Program-made: the position numbers and the translations under genes
The notes under the pieces: model-generated
The model's input: the letters and a program-made list of their open reading frames with translations, nothing else
Told to the model about the DNA's origin: nothing
The model's database searches: none
Shown here: in pieces, positions 270 through 7,182 of the stretch
Position numbering within the stretch: position 1 is the first letter of the stretch
Layout of the letters: each line of letters opens with the position of its first letter
Virus genome (UHGV): UHGV-0321443
Length of the DNA stretch: 31,784 nt
Strand: one strand, 5' to 3'
Origin: a virus

Positions 270-303
270 TTTATGCCAAAAATAAAGGCCGATTATGCGG
301 CCT
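270..303 (-). terminator. Rho-independent terminator (tL-like) overlapping the stop codon of the 293..916 gene
   Basis: Hairpin aggccg-attatg-cggcct at 286..303, followed on the minus strand by a U-run (revcomp of 270..285 reads tatttttggcataaac). Confidence 0.4.
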
Positions 304-916
304 CGGAAGGAAGTCCAATCATCTTATTCAAATCTTCTACCCGTAAAGCAGGAAGTGCTGTACTTGCTTTATCTGCTTCTTTTGGTAGCAATTCTTTGCT
401 TTCAGGCCAAACTTCAATAAGTCGCTTAACTGTTGTGACTGATTTCAAAGCAGCCCATACATTTGATTCGATATCCTTTTTCTTGGCTTCAAGTTTTTGT
501 TGCAATGCGCAGATTTCATCAAACCTTTTTGTTATTTCGTGTTCTGCGTCAAACATGCATTTATCTTTGATCGGAGTAGGGAGCAATATATCTTTGCCGT
601 TGCCGTCTTCCCCATATGAATGCCATCCAACCCTTCTGCCAGATACAGTCAGATAAATTGAAGTAGAACTAACATCGTATGAGTAAAATGAACATCCCAT
701 CTTTCCAAGTTCTTCACTTATAGCTACCAACTTGGATGATAACTGACCCACTTCCTCAGTTTTCTTTTTACCGCCAAACGCAATAACTCTGGCGTCAAGT
801 GCAAGCTGGTTCTTTAACTTTGTTACTTCTTCAAGTTCAGTGAACACCCCGGACTTAATTAAAGCGTTACGAGCGATTTCCTCTTTCATTCTCGTAGTTA
901 AGCGGATTGATGACAT
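293..916 (-). CDS. Hypothetical protein (207 aa), first gene downstream of N in the pL operon
   Basis: Six-frame ORF 293..976; internal ATG at 916 has SD GAGGA with 6-nt spacing (MSSIRLTTRMKEEIARN...). Position and orientation fit the pL operon. No recognisable domain. Confidence 0.5.
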   Translation of the reverse strand: MSSIRLTTRMKEEIARNALIKSGVFTELEEVTKLKNQLALDARVIAFGGKKKTEEVGQLSSKLVAISEELGKMGCSFYSYDVSSTSIYLTVSGRRVGWHSYGEDGNGKDILLPTPIKDKCMFDAEHEITKRFDEICALQQKLEAKKKDIESNVWAALKSVTTVKRLIEVWPESKELLPKEADKASTALPALRVEDLNKMIGLPSEAA

Positions 917-977
917 ATTAATTCCTCTCAAATAAGTGGTTTGCTGCCTAATTTCATTTTCTGGCGACCAACACAAG

Positions 978-1361: not shown

Positions 1362-1526
1362 ATAGACCTCCTGATGAACTTTGGTGGTGTGGTAGGTGGG
1401 AGACCCATTTCGACCTGTTTCGGCCTACTTCAATTCGGCAATAGTCCCGCAGGCCTCGCCGCTTTACGTGCGACATATTCCCGTCCATGAACCCTTCACC
1501 ACACCCCAAAGTTCACTTTGGTTATT

Positions 1527-1541
1527 GCGCTTTGTCAGCGC
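1527..1541 (-). promoter_or_regulatory. nutL boxB hairpin (P22-type)
   Basis: Minus-strand transcript reads GCGCUGACAAAGCGC (4-bp GC stem, 7-nt loop), matching the P22 boxB as I remember it; lies between pL and the N start. Confidence 0.55.
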
Positions 1542-1609
1542 CGTAGATTCATATTCGAATCGTTGTATATTCACCGCCCTGGTGAGTAGTGCGTCCTGCT
1601 GATGTGTTT

Positions 1610-1639
1610 AGTATCACCGCCAGTGGTATTTATGTCAAC
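1610..1639 (-). promoter_or_regulatory. pL early leftward promoter
   Basis: Minus strand reads TTGACA - 17 nt - GATACT, overlapping oL1 and oL2 as in lambda. Confidence 0.75.
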
Positions 1640-1672
1640 ACCGCCAGAGATAATTTATCGCCGCAGATGGTT
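1612..1672. promoter_or_regulatory. oL1-oL2-oL3 operator array (lambda-type CI/Cro sites)
   Basis: Three 17-bp sites: tatcaccgccagtggta (1612..1628), caacaccgccagagata (1636..1652), tatcgccgcagatggtt (1656..1672); the first two match lambda oL1/oL2 as I recall them. Confidence 0.8.
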
Positions 1673-1831
1673 ATCTGTATGTTTTTTATATAGATTTATT
1701 TTTTTGCAGGGGTGTGTGGCTTGGGAGGTGATCGAGAGATCTGAATTGCGATGTTTAGTGAGTTGTATCTATTAATTTTCAAATAAATACAATTGGTTAT
1801 GTGTTTTGGGGCGAACGTGAGGCAAAGAAAA

Positions 1832-1859
1832 CCCGGCGCGGTGGCCGGGTTTATTTATT
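1832..1859. terminator. Bidirectional rho-independent terminator (t-imm-like) closing the cI-side operon
   Basis: Hairpin cccggc-gcggtg-gccggg at 1832..1849, flanked by T-rich runs on both strands (tttatttatt on plus; ttttctttg on minus). Overlaps the stop codon of the 1855..2505 gene. Confidence 0.6.
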
Positions 1860-2505
1860 GCTTAGGAGCTTGTTGTGATGACGATTGGTTAGTTGGAGCG
1901 CTCGTTAATGGTTGCTGTGTCGGTACCTGTATTATAATTGGAGCCGGGCTGGTTACTGATGGTGACTTGTCATTGCCGGAGATAATCCAACTTGAGGCTA
2001 ACATCACGCCAGACAGAATCACAGTAACTAAAGTCAAGCCAACGGCCATCGCCCACTGAGTCGTTGTAAGTCCCGTTTTCAAACCGCCGATTTCACCTTT
2101 AATTTCAGCAATACCTCTCTCAATAGAAGAAAATTGCTGAGTATAATAGGTTTTAAAGTCAGCTGATTCGCGACGCATTTCCGCAGCAATAGACTCTACC
2201 TCTGATTTGTTTTGTGAAAGCTTTGCGTCAAGTTCTTCTCTGGACATTCCGCTCACGCTTACCTCCAGGGTATCACTCTTCATCGCTACATCTTCCTTAC
2301 TTGGGCGCAAACCCGTTTCGTCCATGGCGTATGAAACTCTATTTGATACCTTAGCATCAATACCAATACTTTGGTACTGAGATGGATCCCCATAAGGAGA
2401 AACGGTTGTCGCTGCTAGGGTTGCACTAACTATAATACTTGGAAGAACTGATGATGTTGTTCCTGAGGTAGGTTGAACTGAAGAAACTGGCTTCAGTCTT
2501 TCCAT
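1855..2505 (-). CDS. Hypothetical membrane-anchored protein (216 aa) with N-terminal Ser/Thr-rich region, central charged helical region, one predicted TM helix and a Ser/Thr/Pro/Gln-rich C-terminal tail
   Basis: Six-frame ORF; hydrophobic stretch WAMAVGLTLVTVILSGVMLASSWII; start overlaps the upstream gene's stop by 13 nt (ATGGAAAGACTGA), implying translational coupling; ends at the terminator before oL. Confidence 0.55.
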   Translation of the reverse strand: MERLKPVSSVQPTSGTTSSVLPSIIVSATLAATTVSPYGDPSQYQSIGIDAKVSNRVSYAMDETGLRPSKEDVAMKSDTLEVSVSGMSREELDAKLSQNKSEVESIAAEMRRESADFKTYYTQQFSSIERGIAEIKGEIGGLKTGLTTTQWAMAVGLTLVTVILSGVMLASSWIISGNDKSPSVTSPAPIIIQVPTQQPLTSAPTNQSSSQQAPKQ

Positions 2506-2759
2506 AGCCCATTATCCCTGAGAGCTACCTGTAATGATTTTACTAATGCAACAGCTTGATCCGGGCTCATTGAGACTGACATGTTAGGGGTCAACTCAAC
2601 TTTTACTTGGAAGCTATTCTTTCCTTGCTCATCAGACTGCATGTGATGCTCAAATTCATGGCGGTAAAAAGTAATGATTGTTTCAGCACGATCAGGCGTA
2701 ATAAGAACTGATGTGGCGGTCATGTGCTGAGGTATGATTTTAATAGTGTTATCTGACAT
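2493..2759 (-). CDS. Hypothetical small protein (88 aa; the ORF could extend to 2900 for 135 aa)
   Basis: ATG at 2759 has AAGGA about 5 nt upstream (MSDNTIKIIPQHMTATSV...); upstream in-frame Met codons lack an SD. No recognisable domain. Confidence 0.45.
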   Translation of the reverse strand: MSDNTIKIIPQHMTATSVLITPDRAETIITFYRHEFEHHMQSDEQGKNSFQVKVELTPNMSVSMSPDQAVALVKSLQVALRDNGLWKD

Positions 2760-2951
2760 AAGTATCCTTTTTGTTTCCTTAGTATTTTTTTGCATTGACA
2801 TCAGAAATAGCGAATCCACAAGAGTATGAGTAAAGCTAATCAGTTTAGTGATACGGTGACTATTAAAGTGGTAAACCACATCAAAGCTCGCAGAGTGCAT
2901 ACCAGGCTGTCACACATGACAAAGTAACGAGGATGCCTGATCTCATAGCGC

Positions 2952-3107
2952 TCAAAGAGACATGCCGATAATGGCATTAACCACGCATGACGCCATAAAC
3001 ACGCCGCCAACGATGAAGCTGGCTTGGTTCTTCCTGGTAGCGCCAAGAGTCAACAGAACCACTGAAAGGGCAAAAAAAGGTATCGCGATTATGCTGAACG
3101 TGTTCAT
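2952..3107 (-). CDS. Small hydrophobic protein, 51 aa, two predicted TM helices
   Basis: Hand translation of the minus strand: MNTFSIIAIPFFALSVVLLTLGATRKNQASFIVGGVFMASCVVNAIIGMSL; SD GAGG 5 nt upstream of the ATG; 77 bp downstream of the cI stop on the same strand. Below the ORF-track size cutoff. Confidence 0.4.
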   Translation of the reverse strand: MNTFSIIAIPFFALSVVLLTLGATRKNQASFIVGGVFMASCVVNAIIGMSL

Positions 3108-3184
3108 GTTGACCTCAACTTATTTCGATTCTCCATCACCCTTAATCCGCCGCCCCATGTGTTTGTTGTGATTCGTTGCTGGCC

Positions 3185-3901
<717 letters not shown>

Positions 3902-3908
3902 TTAAATC

Positions 3909-3972
3909 TATCACCGCAAGGGATAAATATCTAACGCCGTGCGTGTTGACTATTTTACCTCTAGCGGTGATA
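3909..3972. promoter_or_regulatory. oR3-oR2-oR1 operator array with overlapping divergent pRM/pR promoters
   Basis: tatcaccgcaagggata (3909..3925), taacgccgtgcgtgttg (3932..3948), tacctctagcggtgata (3956..3972); pR reads TTGACT (3946..3951) - 17 nt - GATAAT (3969..3974) towards cro. Confidence 0.85.
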
Positions 3973-3989
3973 ATGGTTGCATGTACTAA

Positions 3990-4199
<210 letters not shown>

Positions 4200-4237
4200 G
4201 TAACACCGCTATTTTCACAATGGACATTCGTCCTACG

Positions 4238-4634: not shown

Positions 4635-4655
4635 CTGCTTTCTATGGAGTTAATT

Positions 4656-5456
4656 ATGGCAAAAAAACCTACACCAGACCAGGTAAAAAAGATTCGTTCC
4701 GGCATTACCAAGAAAATACGGTTTGAGGTTTTCAAGCGCGATGGCTTCAAATGCCAGTACTGTGGGAGTTCTGCGCCAGACGTCATCCTTCATGTCGACC
4801 ATATCAACCCAGTTAGCAAGGGTGGCGATAACGACATGATGAACCTTATTACTTCTTGCGATAGTTGTAATGGCGGGAAAAGCGACAAACTGCTCAGCGA
4901 TAACTCAATAATGGAAAAGCAAAGGCAGCAACTCCAGGAACTTAATACCAAGCGAGAGCAACTGGAGATGATGATCAAGTGGCGAGATGGTCTTAAGAGC
5001 CTGAAAGACGATGTTGTTGATATTGTCGCTACCAAAATTGACGACTGCATTGCACCATTTACTGTTAATGACAATGGGCGAAAATCTATCAAGAGATGGC
5101 TTCGAATATATAAGCTTGAAGAAATCCTCGATGCGATTGAGATTGCCGCAGATAAAAAACTCACCCAAGAAATAACCCATGAGCTTACTGGTGAATTCTT
5201 TGAGTACATCCCTCGCATAGCAGCGACAAAAAGAAAACCGCCAAAAGAACAAAGGATTCTATACATCAGAGGAATCCTTAAAAACCGCATATATATCAAT
5301 CAAAACCATGTAATGAGTTATCTCAAGGCATGGCTTTCATACGACTTAGATCTCGATGAACTTACTGAGTTTGCGAAAACAGTACCTAACTGGACAACGT
5401 TCAAGGAGTGGGTATCTGAACGCATTCGTGAAGCTCAGGAAGAACTCCCGTACTAA
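4656..5456 (+). CDS. HNH endonuclease-domain protein with an unknown C-terminal domain
   Basis: HNH motif region CQYCG...HVDHINPVSKGGDNDMMNLITSCDSCN; SD GGAG before the ATG at 4656; visibly AT-richer than neighbouring genes. Confidence 0.65.
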   Translation: MAKKPTPDQVKKIRSGITKKIRFEVFKRDGFKCQYCGSSAPDVILHVDHINPVSKGGDNDMMNLITSCDSCNGGKSDKLLSDNSIMEKQRQQLQELNTKREQLEMMIKWRDGLKSLKDDVVDIVATKIDDCIAPFTVNDNGRKSIKRWLRIYKLEEILDAIEIAADKKLTQEITHELTGEFFEYIPRIAATKRKPPKEQRILYIRGILKNRIYINQNHVMSYLKAWLSYDLDLDELTEFAKTVPNWTTFKEWVSERIREAQEELPY

Positions 5457-5467
5457 AGGTGGACAAA

Positions 5468-6334
5468 ATGGCACGTTCAAGAAATATCAAACCAGGCTTT
5501 TTCACCAATGATGAATTAGCTGAGTGTTCTCCATATGCCCGTCTCCTTTTTGCCGGGTTATGGACTATTGCTGACAAAGAAGGGCGGTTGGATGATCGCC
5601 CAAAGAAAATTAAAGCAATGGTACTGCCTTTCGATGATGTGGACTGCAATGATCTGCTTCAGCAGCTTCACAGTCACAAATTCATCAACCGATATCAGGT
5701 AAATGGCGGCTCATATATCCAAATCAATAACTGGAAAAAGCACCAGAACCCTCACTGCAAAGAAGCAGCCAGTGAGATACCAGAACCAGTAGAGAACAAT
5801 AACAGCACCATGCAAGTACAGTGCAAGGACGATAAAGAGGAAGAGAAGGAGGATGCCGAATCACTACAAGTCATTGAAAACAATGGAGCACCAGAAAAGC
5901 ACCATGCAAGTACAGTGCAAGAACCAGTAGAGAACAGTTTAAATCCTGCTGATTCCCTTAACCTGATTCCTGATTCCCTTTCTAACACCCAAGCCGCTGA
6001 CGCGACTTGTGAAGGGGGTGGGGCTGATGTCCATAAAATTTCAAGTCGCTATGCATTCGAAGGAAATATCGTTCGGTTAAACCACAAGGACTACGAAGCA
6101 TGGAAGCGCCTGTATCCGAACATTGACCTGAATTACGAACTGGAAAGGCTGGATATCGAATTTAGCCATGAGAAGCCAAAGAACTGGTTTATCACTGCCA
6201 GCCAGAAACTCAGCTACCAGAACAAGCAGGCGTTATCCAGACCGGTACGCAAGGTTGCTAATGGACTTAAGGCTGAAAACTTTGCCACCAAAGATTACGG
6301 ACAAACTGAAATGCCTTCATGGGCGCAGGAGTGA
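5468..6334 (+). CDS. Replication initiation protein (O-like replisome organiser)
   Basis: N-terminus MARSRNIKPGFFTNDELAECSPYARLLFAGLWTIADKEGRLDDRPKKIKAMVLPFDD resembles phage replication-initiator N-domains; SD AAGGTGG; contains internal direct repeats; followed by the helicase-loader gene. Confidence 0.65.
   Translation: MARSRNIKPGFFTNDELAECSPYARLLFAGLWTIADKEGRLDDRPKKIKAMVLPFDDVDCNDLLQQLHSHKFINRYQVNGGSYIQINNWKKHQNPHCKEAASEIPEPVENNNSTMQVQCKDDKEEEKEDAESLQVIENNGAPEKHHASTVQEPVENSLNPADSLNLIPDSLSNTQAADATCEGGGADVHKISSRYAFEGNIVRLNHKDYEAWKRLYPNIDLNYELERLDIEFSHEKPKNWFITASQKLSYQNKQALSRPVRKVANGLKAENFATKDYGQTEMPSWAQE
5781..5985. repeat. Iteron-like direct repeats inside the O-like gene (candidate replication origin)
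   Basis: gaaccagtagagaaca occurs at about 5785 and 5922; caccatgcaagtacagtgcaag at about 5816 and 5901; tgattcc(c) occurs three times in 5951..5980. Confidence 0.5.
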
Positions 6335-6336
6335 AC

Positions 6337-7182
6337 ATGACGCTGGATGAAAAGATCTCGCAACTGGAGAAAAAACTTGCAGAATTGAGTTCTCCGCCAA
6401 TTGCTATCGAGCATACAGCTGTAGAAATTGGCACTGGCATCTGTGAAAAACATGGTGAGTTTGAGCAGCGTAACCGTTATTCGACAGGGACAATTAAGTT
6501 TGCCTCAAGACCTAGCGAATGCCCGGAATGCATGAGAGATGAGCTTATTCGGCTACAGGCAGAGAAGATTAAAATCGACGAAGAATCACGTAAGCGCAAT
6601 GTCGAGTTTCTGTTGAATAATCTTGATATTCCTGAACGATTCAAGGGTTGCACACTACAGAACTACGAGCCAGTCAACGACGATGCAAAGAGAGTGCTCA
6701 GGGTGTGTCAGGCATACGCCAGCAAATGGCCTGAGAGGTTACAGAAAGGCGGTGGGCTGGTTATGTGTGGAAAGCCTGGTACTGGAAAGAATCATCTTGC
6801 ACTGGCTATCGCCCGGCACGCAATTACGGAACATCAAAGCTCAGCTATTTTCACAACGGCGCTGAAAATTGCCAGAGAATATAAATCAACATGGTCGAAA
6901 AACTCCACCCGCACAGAGGATGAAGTGATCCGACAGTTCACTAAACCTGACCTGCTAATTATCGATGAGGTTGGTGTGCAGTTTGGAAGCGAGGCGGAAA
7001 AGATGATCATGTTCGAAATCATCAACACCCGCTACGAGCGCATGAAGCCAACAATCCTGATTAGCAACCAGAGCAAAGATGAACTTTCGGCATTCATTGG
7101 TGAGCGTGTTATTGACAGGATGAATGATGGCGGCGGATGCACCCTTGCGTTTACATGGGATAGTTACAGGAGCAGATCGTGA
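6337..7182 (+). CDS. DnaC/IstB-like AAA+ ATPase (replicative helicase loader)
   Basis: Walker A GKPGTGKNHLALAIA and Walker B LLIIDEVG; start immediately follows the O-like stop, with SD AGGAG. Confidence 0.8.
   Translation: MTLDEKISQLEKKLAELSSPPIAIEHTAVEIGTGICEKHGEFEQRNRYSTGTIKFASRPSECPECMRDELIRLQAEKIKIDEESRKRNVEFLLNNLDIPERFKGCTLQNYEPVNDDAKRVLRVCQAYASKWPERLQKGGGLVMCGKPGTGKNHLALAIARHAITEHQSSAIFTTALKIAREYKSTWSKNSTRTEDEVIRQFTKPDLLIIDEVGVQFGSEAEKMIMFEIINTRYERMKPTILISNQSKDELSAFIGERVIDRMNDGGGCTLAFTWDSYRSRS

Follow-up and report, generated by a model that had tools for sequence, protein, structure and literature searches.

The closest described counterparts of the genes considered here are largely exclusion systems of prophages. 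In phage lambda, RexA and RexB, the soluble and the membrane component of an abortive-infection system co-transcribed with cI, are encoded between cI and tIMM/pL, and RexB has four transmembrane (TM) segments. SieB of lambda, P22 and Rac is a membrane protein that is expressed in lysogens from the immunity regions of lambdoid and Rac-like prophages. SieA of P22 is an inner-membrane protein that blocks DNA injection. In P22, mnt has sieA and orf59a as neighbours (PMC10461980). The gene for BstA of prophage BTP1 directly follows the prophage repressor gene and presumably shares its promoter, a layout conserved across diverse prophages, and the repressor-to-N interval has been described as a mosaic hotspot with abortive-infection genes under the repressor promoter (PMC8585504). 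HK97 gp15 is a small, prophage-expressed inner-membrane protein whose homologues are mostly not phage-encoded (PMC3594210). Here, we analysed the interval at positions 1832 to 3184 of virus genome UHGV-0321443 (31,784 nucleotides (nt), hereafter the window), which carries the genes for HK97 gp49 and gp48 and a 51-amino-acid (aa) open reading frame (ORF), p51. The results revealed that the conserved unit is a soluble partner gene followed by a gene for a tail-anchored coiled-coil membrane protein of the gp48 type. We give an even chance to the reading that this pair is a lysogen-expressed two-component exclusion or abortive-infection module.

The window comes from a lambdoid phage, or a prophage of that kind, whose immunity is that of lambda, and DNA comparison showed 99.7% identity to HK97 across positions 1500-4200. 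The cI repressor gene (3185-3898, minus strand) heads the gene order on the minus strand; its 237-aa product is of the lambda immunity type, HK97 has the same cI annotation, and in identical loci the protein carries HTH_3 and Peptidase_S24 domains. The cI gene is followed, after a 77-nt spacer, by p51 (2952-3107, minus strand), a 192-nt spacer (2760-2951), the gene for the 88-aa gp49 (2493-2759, minus strand) and the gene for the 216-aa gp48 (1855-2505, minus strand). All three ORFs were thus found where an earlier note, made from the letters of the window alone, had placed them, and the coordinates of the latter two correspond to the annotated coding sequences of HK97 genes 49 and 48. Homology to lambda stops at 3189 and restarts at 1851 (lambda-homologous segment 1851-1571). 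Because the breakpoints fall there, the interval replaces rexA-rexB exactly, downstream of cI and upstream of tIMM/pL, in agreement with the rexAB position assigned in the earlier note. Other lambda-immunity phages hold rexAB (lambda) or hicAB (mEp234 and HK106) in this slot, and bstA occupies the same post-repressor position (PMC8585504). The description of the slot as a hotspot for defence cargo was likewise borne out: rexAB, hicAB, bstA and a candidate of the PADLOC class PDC-M63A (described below with p51) are exclusion or toxin-antitoxin cargo, and we count this in favour of an exclusion role.

A partner ORF lies directly upstream of the gp48-type gene in 40/40 surveyed loci and ends within a few dozen bases of its start. 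In the window, the two genes overlap by 13 nt (2493-2505), as the earlier note had read, and the overlap is identical in a Klebsiella homologue pair; in many other loci, the two genes are 5-15 nt apart instead. The conserved unit is not the three-gene cassette that had been proposed, and the logic suggested for it, a small membrane protein acting with a membrane-anchored partner, gave way to that of a soluble partner with a tail-anchored coiled-coil protein. A p51 hidden Markov model (HMM) had no match in 27/27 divergent pair loci from viral contigs, and in Klebsiella and Citrobacter-type loci there is no room for p51 because only 40-100 nt separate the repressor gene from the partner gene. 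Significant matches over the full length to existing family HMMs were obtained for both pair proteins, gp49 to phrog_26809 (E = 2.7e-62) and gp48 to phrog_5820 (E = 9.6e-69), and both PHROGs are labelled 'unknown function'.

All three gene families are under purifying selection. The ratio of nonsynonymous to synonymous substitution rates (dN/dS) was 0.06-0.21 for gp49, 0.15-0.32 for gp48 and 0.09-0.23 for p51, calculated from divergent pairs of homologues, the HK97-type cassette itself being too uniform (55 loci, 14 haplotypes, few differences). With dN/dS of 0.06-0.32 across the three families and full-length p51 homologues, the genes are real, and the earlier concern that the ORFs might be spurious falls away. 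Among the 14 haplotypes of the 55 loci, gp48 (651 nt) has 0 variable sites, p51 (156 nt) has 9, and the 34-nt terminator region also has 9. The start of gp48 at M1 is backed by the Klebsiella homologue, whose alignment begins at residue 4 and whose gene shares the 13-nt overlap. A '156-aa' variant of gp48 was considered as a truncated form and rejected: its DNA is identical, and the start call alone differs.

Alignments and hydropathy divide gp48 into four parts. Residues 1-85 (2251-2505, minus strand) form a variable, Ser/Thr/Val-rich N-terminal region, which is co-inherited with the type of partner gene and ranges from 37 to 109 residues in the family. Residues 86-149 (2059-2250, minus strand) comprise a signature helix, SREELDAKLSQNKSEVESIAAEMRRE..., that runs into a heptad coiled coil reaching as far as the membrane. 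In gp48 the helix motif reads SREELDAKLxQNKAEV..VAAEMRREMAEFR, and the family consensus, (S/T)RxE(L/I)(D/N)AK(L/F)xQNKAEVxxVAAxMRxEMAxF, is almost invariant; the alignment gives E91, A94, N99, K100, E102, A107, M110 and E113 as invariant columns. As read from the sequence, a/d heptad spacing extends from L92 to L146, with N99 in a core position. Residues 150-172 (1990-2058, minus strand) make up a single C-terminal TM helix (hydropathy 2.25 over 19 residues), and residues 173-216 (1858-1989, minus strand) a presumably periplasmic tail rich in Ser, Thr, Pro and Gln (25 of the 40 residues after the TM helix) with a PIIIQVP motif. We infer that the bulk of gp48 is cytoplasmic, because its sole TM segment is C-terminal and it has no signal peptide. 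For gp49, hydropathy gave no TM segment, and the AlphaFold2 model consists of a beta-meander and a C-terminal helix (predicted local distance difference test, pLDDT, 68.8). The earlier description of a soluble 88-aa protein and a 216-aa protein with one TM helix and a Ser/Thr/Pro/Gln-rich tail was accurate on each point.

The tail is not universal in the gp48 family. The PIIIQVP motif is common to the Yersinia, Kosakonia and L051 members and appears as QPIVIQVP in locus L093, the tail is (PA)n in loci L014-L017, and it is absent in L010, L099 and L100, which end 3-8 residues past the TM helix. The copy number of (Pro-Ala)n differs among near-identical loci (L014-L017 and L080-L085; products of 203-215 aa), which suggests slippage-driven length change of a rigid periplasmic spacer.

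The partners are highly diverse. A gp49 profile search returned 36 proteins of 84-101 aa across Enterobacterales, and the gp49-family HMM finds the partner in 19/27 divergent viral loci; the other partners in this set are a 158-aa protein (phrog_5893), Zn-ribbon proteins of 115-127 aa (phrog_4293) and a 146-aa protein (Sodalis). Partners form six BLAST clusters, namely two gp49-like clusters (phrog_26809 and phrog_4231), phrog_5893, phrog_4293 and two singletons. The phrog_5893 family (144-158 aa, beta-rich) includes the HK542 and HK244 partner. The N-terminal segments of gp48-type proteins fall into 13 clusters, each of which occurs with exactly one of the 6 partner clusters. Near-identical C-terminal modules were found with unrelated partners (L014 and L085; L099 and L100), and one partner/N-terminus combination was found with differing C-terminal modules (L095 and L100; L004 and L011). 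These results indicate that the partner and the gp48 N-terminus are co-inherited and that the membrane half shuffles independently. The simplest reading of this pattern is that the partner would bind the N-terminal tip of gp48 and that recombination would occur in the conserved helix.

In every examined locus, a lysogeny repressor gene on the same strand directly precedes the pair. The preceding repressors are lambda cI, other S24 repressors, short RacR-like helix-turn-helix (HTH) repressors and, in L086, L092 and L099, ribbon-helix-helix (RHH) repressors of the Arc/Mnt type. The rex slot of lambda-immunity phages holds two pair types, the HK97 type and the HK542/HK244 type. Rac-like prophages carry the pair between the racR-like gene and kilR, the region where K-12 Rac has sieB. 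In the P22-like immI region of L086, the order is Ant, Arc/Mnt-type repressor, pair, a 75-aa ORF and a DNA-transfer protein gene. The 75-aa protein after the pair (L086 3431-3658) apparently has two TM segments and is unrelated to p51. In a Yersinia intermedia prophage (L004 3746-4691), proteins of 132 and 135 aa are encoded between the repressor and a partner/gp48-type pair; they look paralogous, each has an N-terminal TM helix, and neither matches a family.

The HK97-type and HK542-type pairs each occur in ~1% of complete E. coli genomes, so that the pair family, counting these two types only, reaches ~2%; the three-gene block was found in 53 of 5426 complete genomes. The pair family also occurs in Klebsiella, Citrobacter, Salmonella, Yersinia, Serratia, Kosakonia and other genera, and gp48 homologues were found in Yersinia, Klebsiella, Kosakonia, Xenorhabdus, Sodalis, Buttiauxella, Citrobacter and others. 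The gp48 family was confined to prophage immunity regions in every locus examined.

Compared with the described systems, the pair resembles RexA/RexB in its slot between cI and tIMM/pL, in combining a soluble with a membrane component and in its presumed expression from the repressor promoter. However, gp48 has one C-terminal TM helix after a long coiled coil where RexB has four TM segments, and in lambda the soluble sensor is the larger of the two proteins, where here the soluble partner is the small one. Homology was not detected: Pfam gave no RexA/RexB hit, and hhalign probability stayed below 1% (0.2% for the gp48 family against RexB, 0.2% for the gp49 family against RexA and 0.6% for the p51 family against RexB). 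Similarly, SieB shares with the pair the character of a lysogen-expressed membrane protein of such immunity regions, and no PF14163 hit was obtained, with an hhalign probability of 0.02% against SieB of L019. The likeness to P22 SieA, compared by position and description, is that the L086 pair lies between mnt and the DNA-transfer gene and that both are inner-membrane proteins; on the other side, PHROGs places gp48 in phrog_5820 ('unknown function'), and the existence of gp48 members with no periplasmic tail speaks against a mechanism that blocks the injection conduit from the periplasm alone. BstA has the same position directly downstream of the repressor, but it is a single cytoplasmic protein acting at phage DNA replication sites rather than a membrane-anchored pair, and the window proteins gave no PADLOC match. 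Scans with Pfam, NCBIfam and PADLOC gave no match above threshold for the three window proteins or for divergent family members, the sub-threshold noise comprising CCDC90-like, Baculo_PEP_C, PspC-TM and LeoC, and the gp48 and gp49 family profiles returned only coiled-coil noise from PDB sequences. The earlier statement that the proteins resemble neither RexA/RexB nor SieB nor any other family therefore stands for these searches.

The pair and p51 are two independent accessory units. In lysogens, transcription from the cI promoter probably reads through both, and they end at the tIMM-type terminator. Co-transcription of the interval with cI from pRM is plausible, because the consensus scan found no convincing terminator between cI and the tIMM-type hairpin and the genes lie on the cI strand. 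gp48 would be tail-anchored in the inner membrane through its one C-terminal helix, and a parallel coiled-coil stalk of ~55 residues, containing the invariant signature helix, would reach into the cytoplasm with the variable N-terminal segment as its tip. The small, beta-rich and soluble gp49 would be translationally coupled to gp48 and would most likely bind the variable tip, so that partner and tip may form a specificity or sensor head on a constant membrane module of stalk and TM helix. Superinfecting phages might then be excluded through an infection-triggered membrane lesion, an abortive infection with RexA/RexB-like logic, or alternatively because the pair interferes, on the cytoplasmic side of the membrane, with entry of the genome or with early development. 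Because the members in L010, L099 and L100 stop so soon after the TM helix, the core activity would lie in the cytoplasm or in the membrane rather than in the periplasm, and an abortive-infection-like or early block is therefore favoured over a periplasmic plug. More tentatively, and somewhat short of an even chance, gp48-type pairs in general may be a widespread modular anti-phage family that had escaped recognition, in which a constant tail-anchored coiled-coil membrane effector is combined with small sensor subunits that can be exchanged and that belong to at least five unrelated families, and which occupies the rexAB slot, the mnt-adjacent region and the racR-kilR region.

Several points weigh against an exclusion role for the pair. 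The anti-phage function is read from sequence and context, the location in an exclusion slot is circumstantial, and a single TM helix with a coiled coil is a generic architecture. No recognisable enzymatic or pore-forming domain was found in the proteins. The three window proteins had no hit in PADLOC-DB v2 at E up to 1, and the only match among divergent members was a sub-threshold one to LeoC (E = 0.0013), in one member. The gp49 model is only moderately confident at its pLDDT and has no significant structural neighbour in PDB or BFVD. Our literature search found no report on the function of gp48 or gp49, though a published phenotype may exist beyond that search. Finally, the slot also houses genes with other roles, as described for 434 hex and for an effect of RexA on the lysis-lysogeny switch.

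This last point leads to the foremost alternative, in which the pair modulates lysogeny and tunes prophage maintenance or induction, for example with a regulator tethered or sequestered at the membrane. The pair is always in the repressor operon, and published work documents a lysogenic-to-lytic role of RexA/RexB from the same slot and shielding of the repressor from RecA-mediated cleavage by 434 Hex. Nevertheless, we consider this explanation unlikely. The repressors that precede the pair are unrelated (self-cleaving S24 proteins, short HTH proteins without S24, and RHH Mnt-type proteins), and because they differ in fold and mechanism a specific interaction with the repressor is improbable; moreover, the swappable and highly diverse partners fit an arms race better than housekeeping regulation.

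Next in rank, and doubtful in our view, is lysogenic conversion unrelated to phages, in which the products would alter envelope physiology such as stress tolerance, colicin or antibiotic susceptibility, or host colonisation. The restriction of the gp48 family to prophage immunity regions speaks against it, as does the dispensability of the periplasmic part of gp48 in some members, even though two of the three products are membrane proteins, relatives of p51 are found among ordinary bacterial genes as well as next to phage structural genes, and lambda lom and bor encode lysogen-expressed membrane proteins with host-interaction roles (PMC7067206).

We regard as improbable a toxin-antitoxin-like addiction module, with gp48 as membrane toxin and gp49 as upstream coupled inhibitor, whose main effect would be stabilisation of the prophage; any role in abortive infection would be secondary. 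As in type II systems such as hicAB of mEp234, a small upstream gene overlaps a larger one (by the 13 nt given above, in the usual type II order), hicAB sits in the same slot of mEp234 and HK106, and partners mixed and matched with a constant downstream protein are typical of toxin-antitoxin evolution. However, Pfam and NCBIfam identified no antitoxin or DNA-binding domain in gp49 and no known toxin domain in gp48, and the 5-15 nt gap in many loci replaces the overlap. The idea also overlaps with the abortive-infection version of the exclusion explanation.

p51 is a real, separable small membrane protein, independent of the conserved pair. Its Shine-Dalgarno sequence, GAGG, sits 5 nt before the ATG, and hydropathy shows two TM segments, in line with the earlier note, with an R25-K26 loop between them. 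The ORF is unannotated in HK97 and annotated as WP_001091427.1 in one RefSeq genome. An exhaustive phmmer search gave full-length homologues of 52-54 aa, of which eight representatives share 47-73% identity and keep the two-TM pattern. Within E. coli, p51 and the pair genes move as a block of at least 99% identity behind at least four different repressors. Elsewhere, p51 follows a RacR-like repressor with the pair absent (L050), or a 250-aa S24 repressor and is itself followed by a DUF6932 protein and a 309-aa protein (L055, 3877-5347). The DUF6932 protein matches the PADLOC candidate PDC-M63A (E = 1e-10) and the 309-aa protein has no family match; the two resemble a further candidate defence pair occupying this slot. 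In L051, p51 precedes a second, highly divergent partner/gp48-type pair. Because p51 is joined there with a very divergent pair, a loose association exists between p51 and the pair, and it is not obligate. Copies of p51 with 75% identity also occur at sites away from repressors: the one in L053 has an MFS transporter gene on one side and a chemoreceptor gene on the other, and the one in L054 lies next to phage structural genes. In both, the homologue is part of a ~600-bp segment common to otherwise unrelated contexts (L053 3158-3950; L054 3170-3745), and in L053 copies of a 130-bp repeat flank it on both sides, a hint that this is a small unit, either mobile or bounded by repeats; the frequency of p51 outside prophages rests on these two loci and on the source names of homologues. 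Related copies away from immunity regions are a likeness to HK97 gp15/YebO, but p51 contains neither YebO nor another Pfam family: it had no match to the YebO family, and Pfam gave only sub-threshold hits to unrelated TM families. The least probable explanation, that all three genes are one obligate system with p51 as membrane channel or gp48 co-effector, can draw on the E. coli block and on L051 and is contradicted by the 27 p51-negative pair loci, by the short repressor gap in Klebsiella and Citrobacter-type loci and by p51 with other cargo or away from repressors.

The interval ends at an intrinsic terminator (1824-1852) made of a hairpin at 1829-1852, whose G+C-rich stem has 9 bp, and of a U-tract on the minus strand, where UUUUCUUU comes after the stem. 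The hairpin has a folding energy of -19.1 kcal/mol (z = -3.6 against shuffles), and the consensus scan called a terminator on the plus strand too, so the bidirectional terminator of the earlier note is present on both strands; it lies at 1829-1852, however, and is the lambda tIMM equivalent of the immunity backbone rather than cassette-specific, because it is inside the segment shared with lambda. The oL operators and pL (1610-1672, minus strand) were read from operator-like repeats and from lambda annotation mapped across, and the consensus scan placed the pL promoter, TTGACA-17-GATACT, at 1638-1610. oL3, at about 1656-1672, does lie beyond the terminator as had been written, but ~160 nt further on, so that 'just before oL3' was a loose wording.

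The 192-nt spacer between p51 and the gp49 gene showed no significant RNA structure (z = +1.1) and no Rfam match, and its coding strand has no promoter reaching 9/12 in the consensus scan. A perfect palindrome, TGTCAtgtgTGACA, lies in it at 2908-2921, ~30 nt past the p51 stop codon. This palindrome falls in the segment that accompanies p51 in L050, whose homology stops at 2869, and the recombination junctions of the p51 unit are at about 2869-2952. It could be a protein-binding site or a piece of a weak terminator. The base composition of the interval showed nothing distinctive.

Outside the interval, the window is a mosaic relative of HK97 and not HK97 itself, because an HNH gene follows cII and an IstB/DnaC-like ATPase replaces the DnaB-type P gene of HK97. 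The former (4644-5456, plus strand) encodes a 270-aa protein with an HNH-endonuclease domain immediately after cII, and the latter (6319-7182, plus strand) lies in the replication module. Directly downstream of N, a 227-aa protein (293-976, minus strand) matches Nmad5 (nucleotide modification associated domain 5; E = 5e-70); HK97 has gp45 in this position, and the same Nmad5 gene is present in L022, another locus with the same cassette.

The ORFs of the pair have long been annotated, and both families are already in PHROGs under 'unknown function'. New are the obligate pairing with an upstream partner, the linkage to repressors, the occupation of positions tied to classical exclusion genes and the modular shuffling. 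HK97 is a model phage, and two genes in its rex position have been without an assigned function since its genome record was annotated. If the wider reading of gp48-type pairs as an anti-phage family is true, HK97 would have a second exclusion system besides gp15, and p51 would possibly be a third. As a defence system, the pair would be new in its effector architecture, a coiled coil that is tail-anchored and takes exchangeable adaptor proteins, and would offer a genetically tractable route to the ways in which a prophage detects competitors at the membrane and shuts them out, for which the natural module swaps are ready-made specificity chimeras. If it is not defence, the pair would still point to a new function whose genes prophages express together with that of the repressor.

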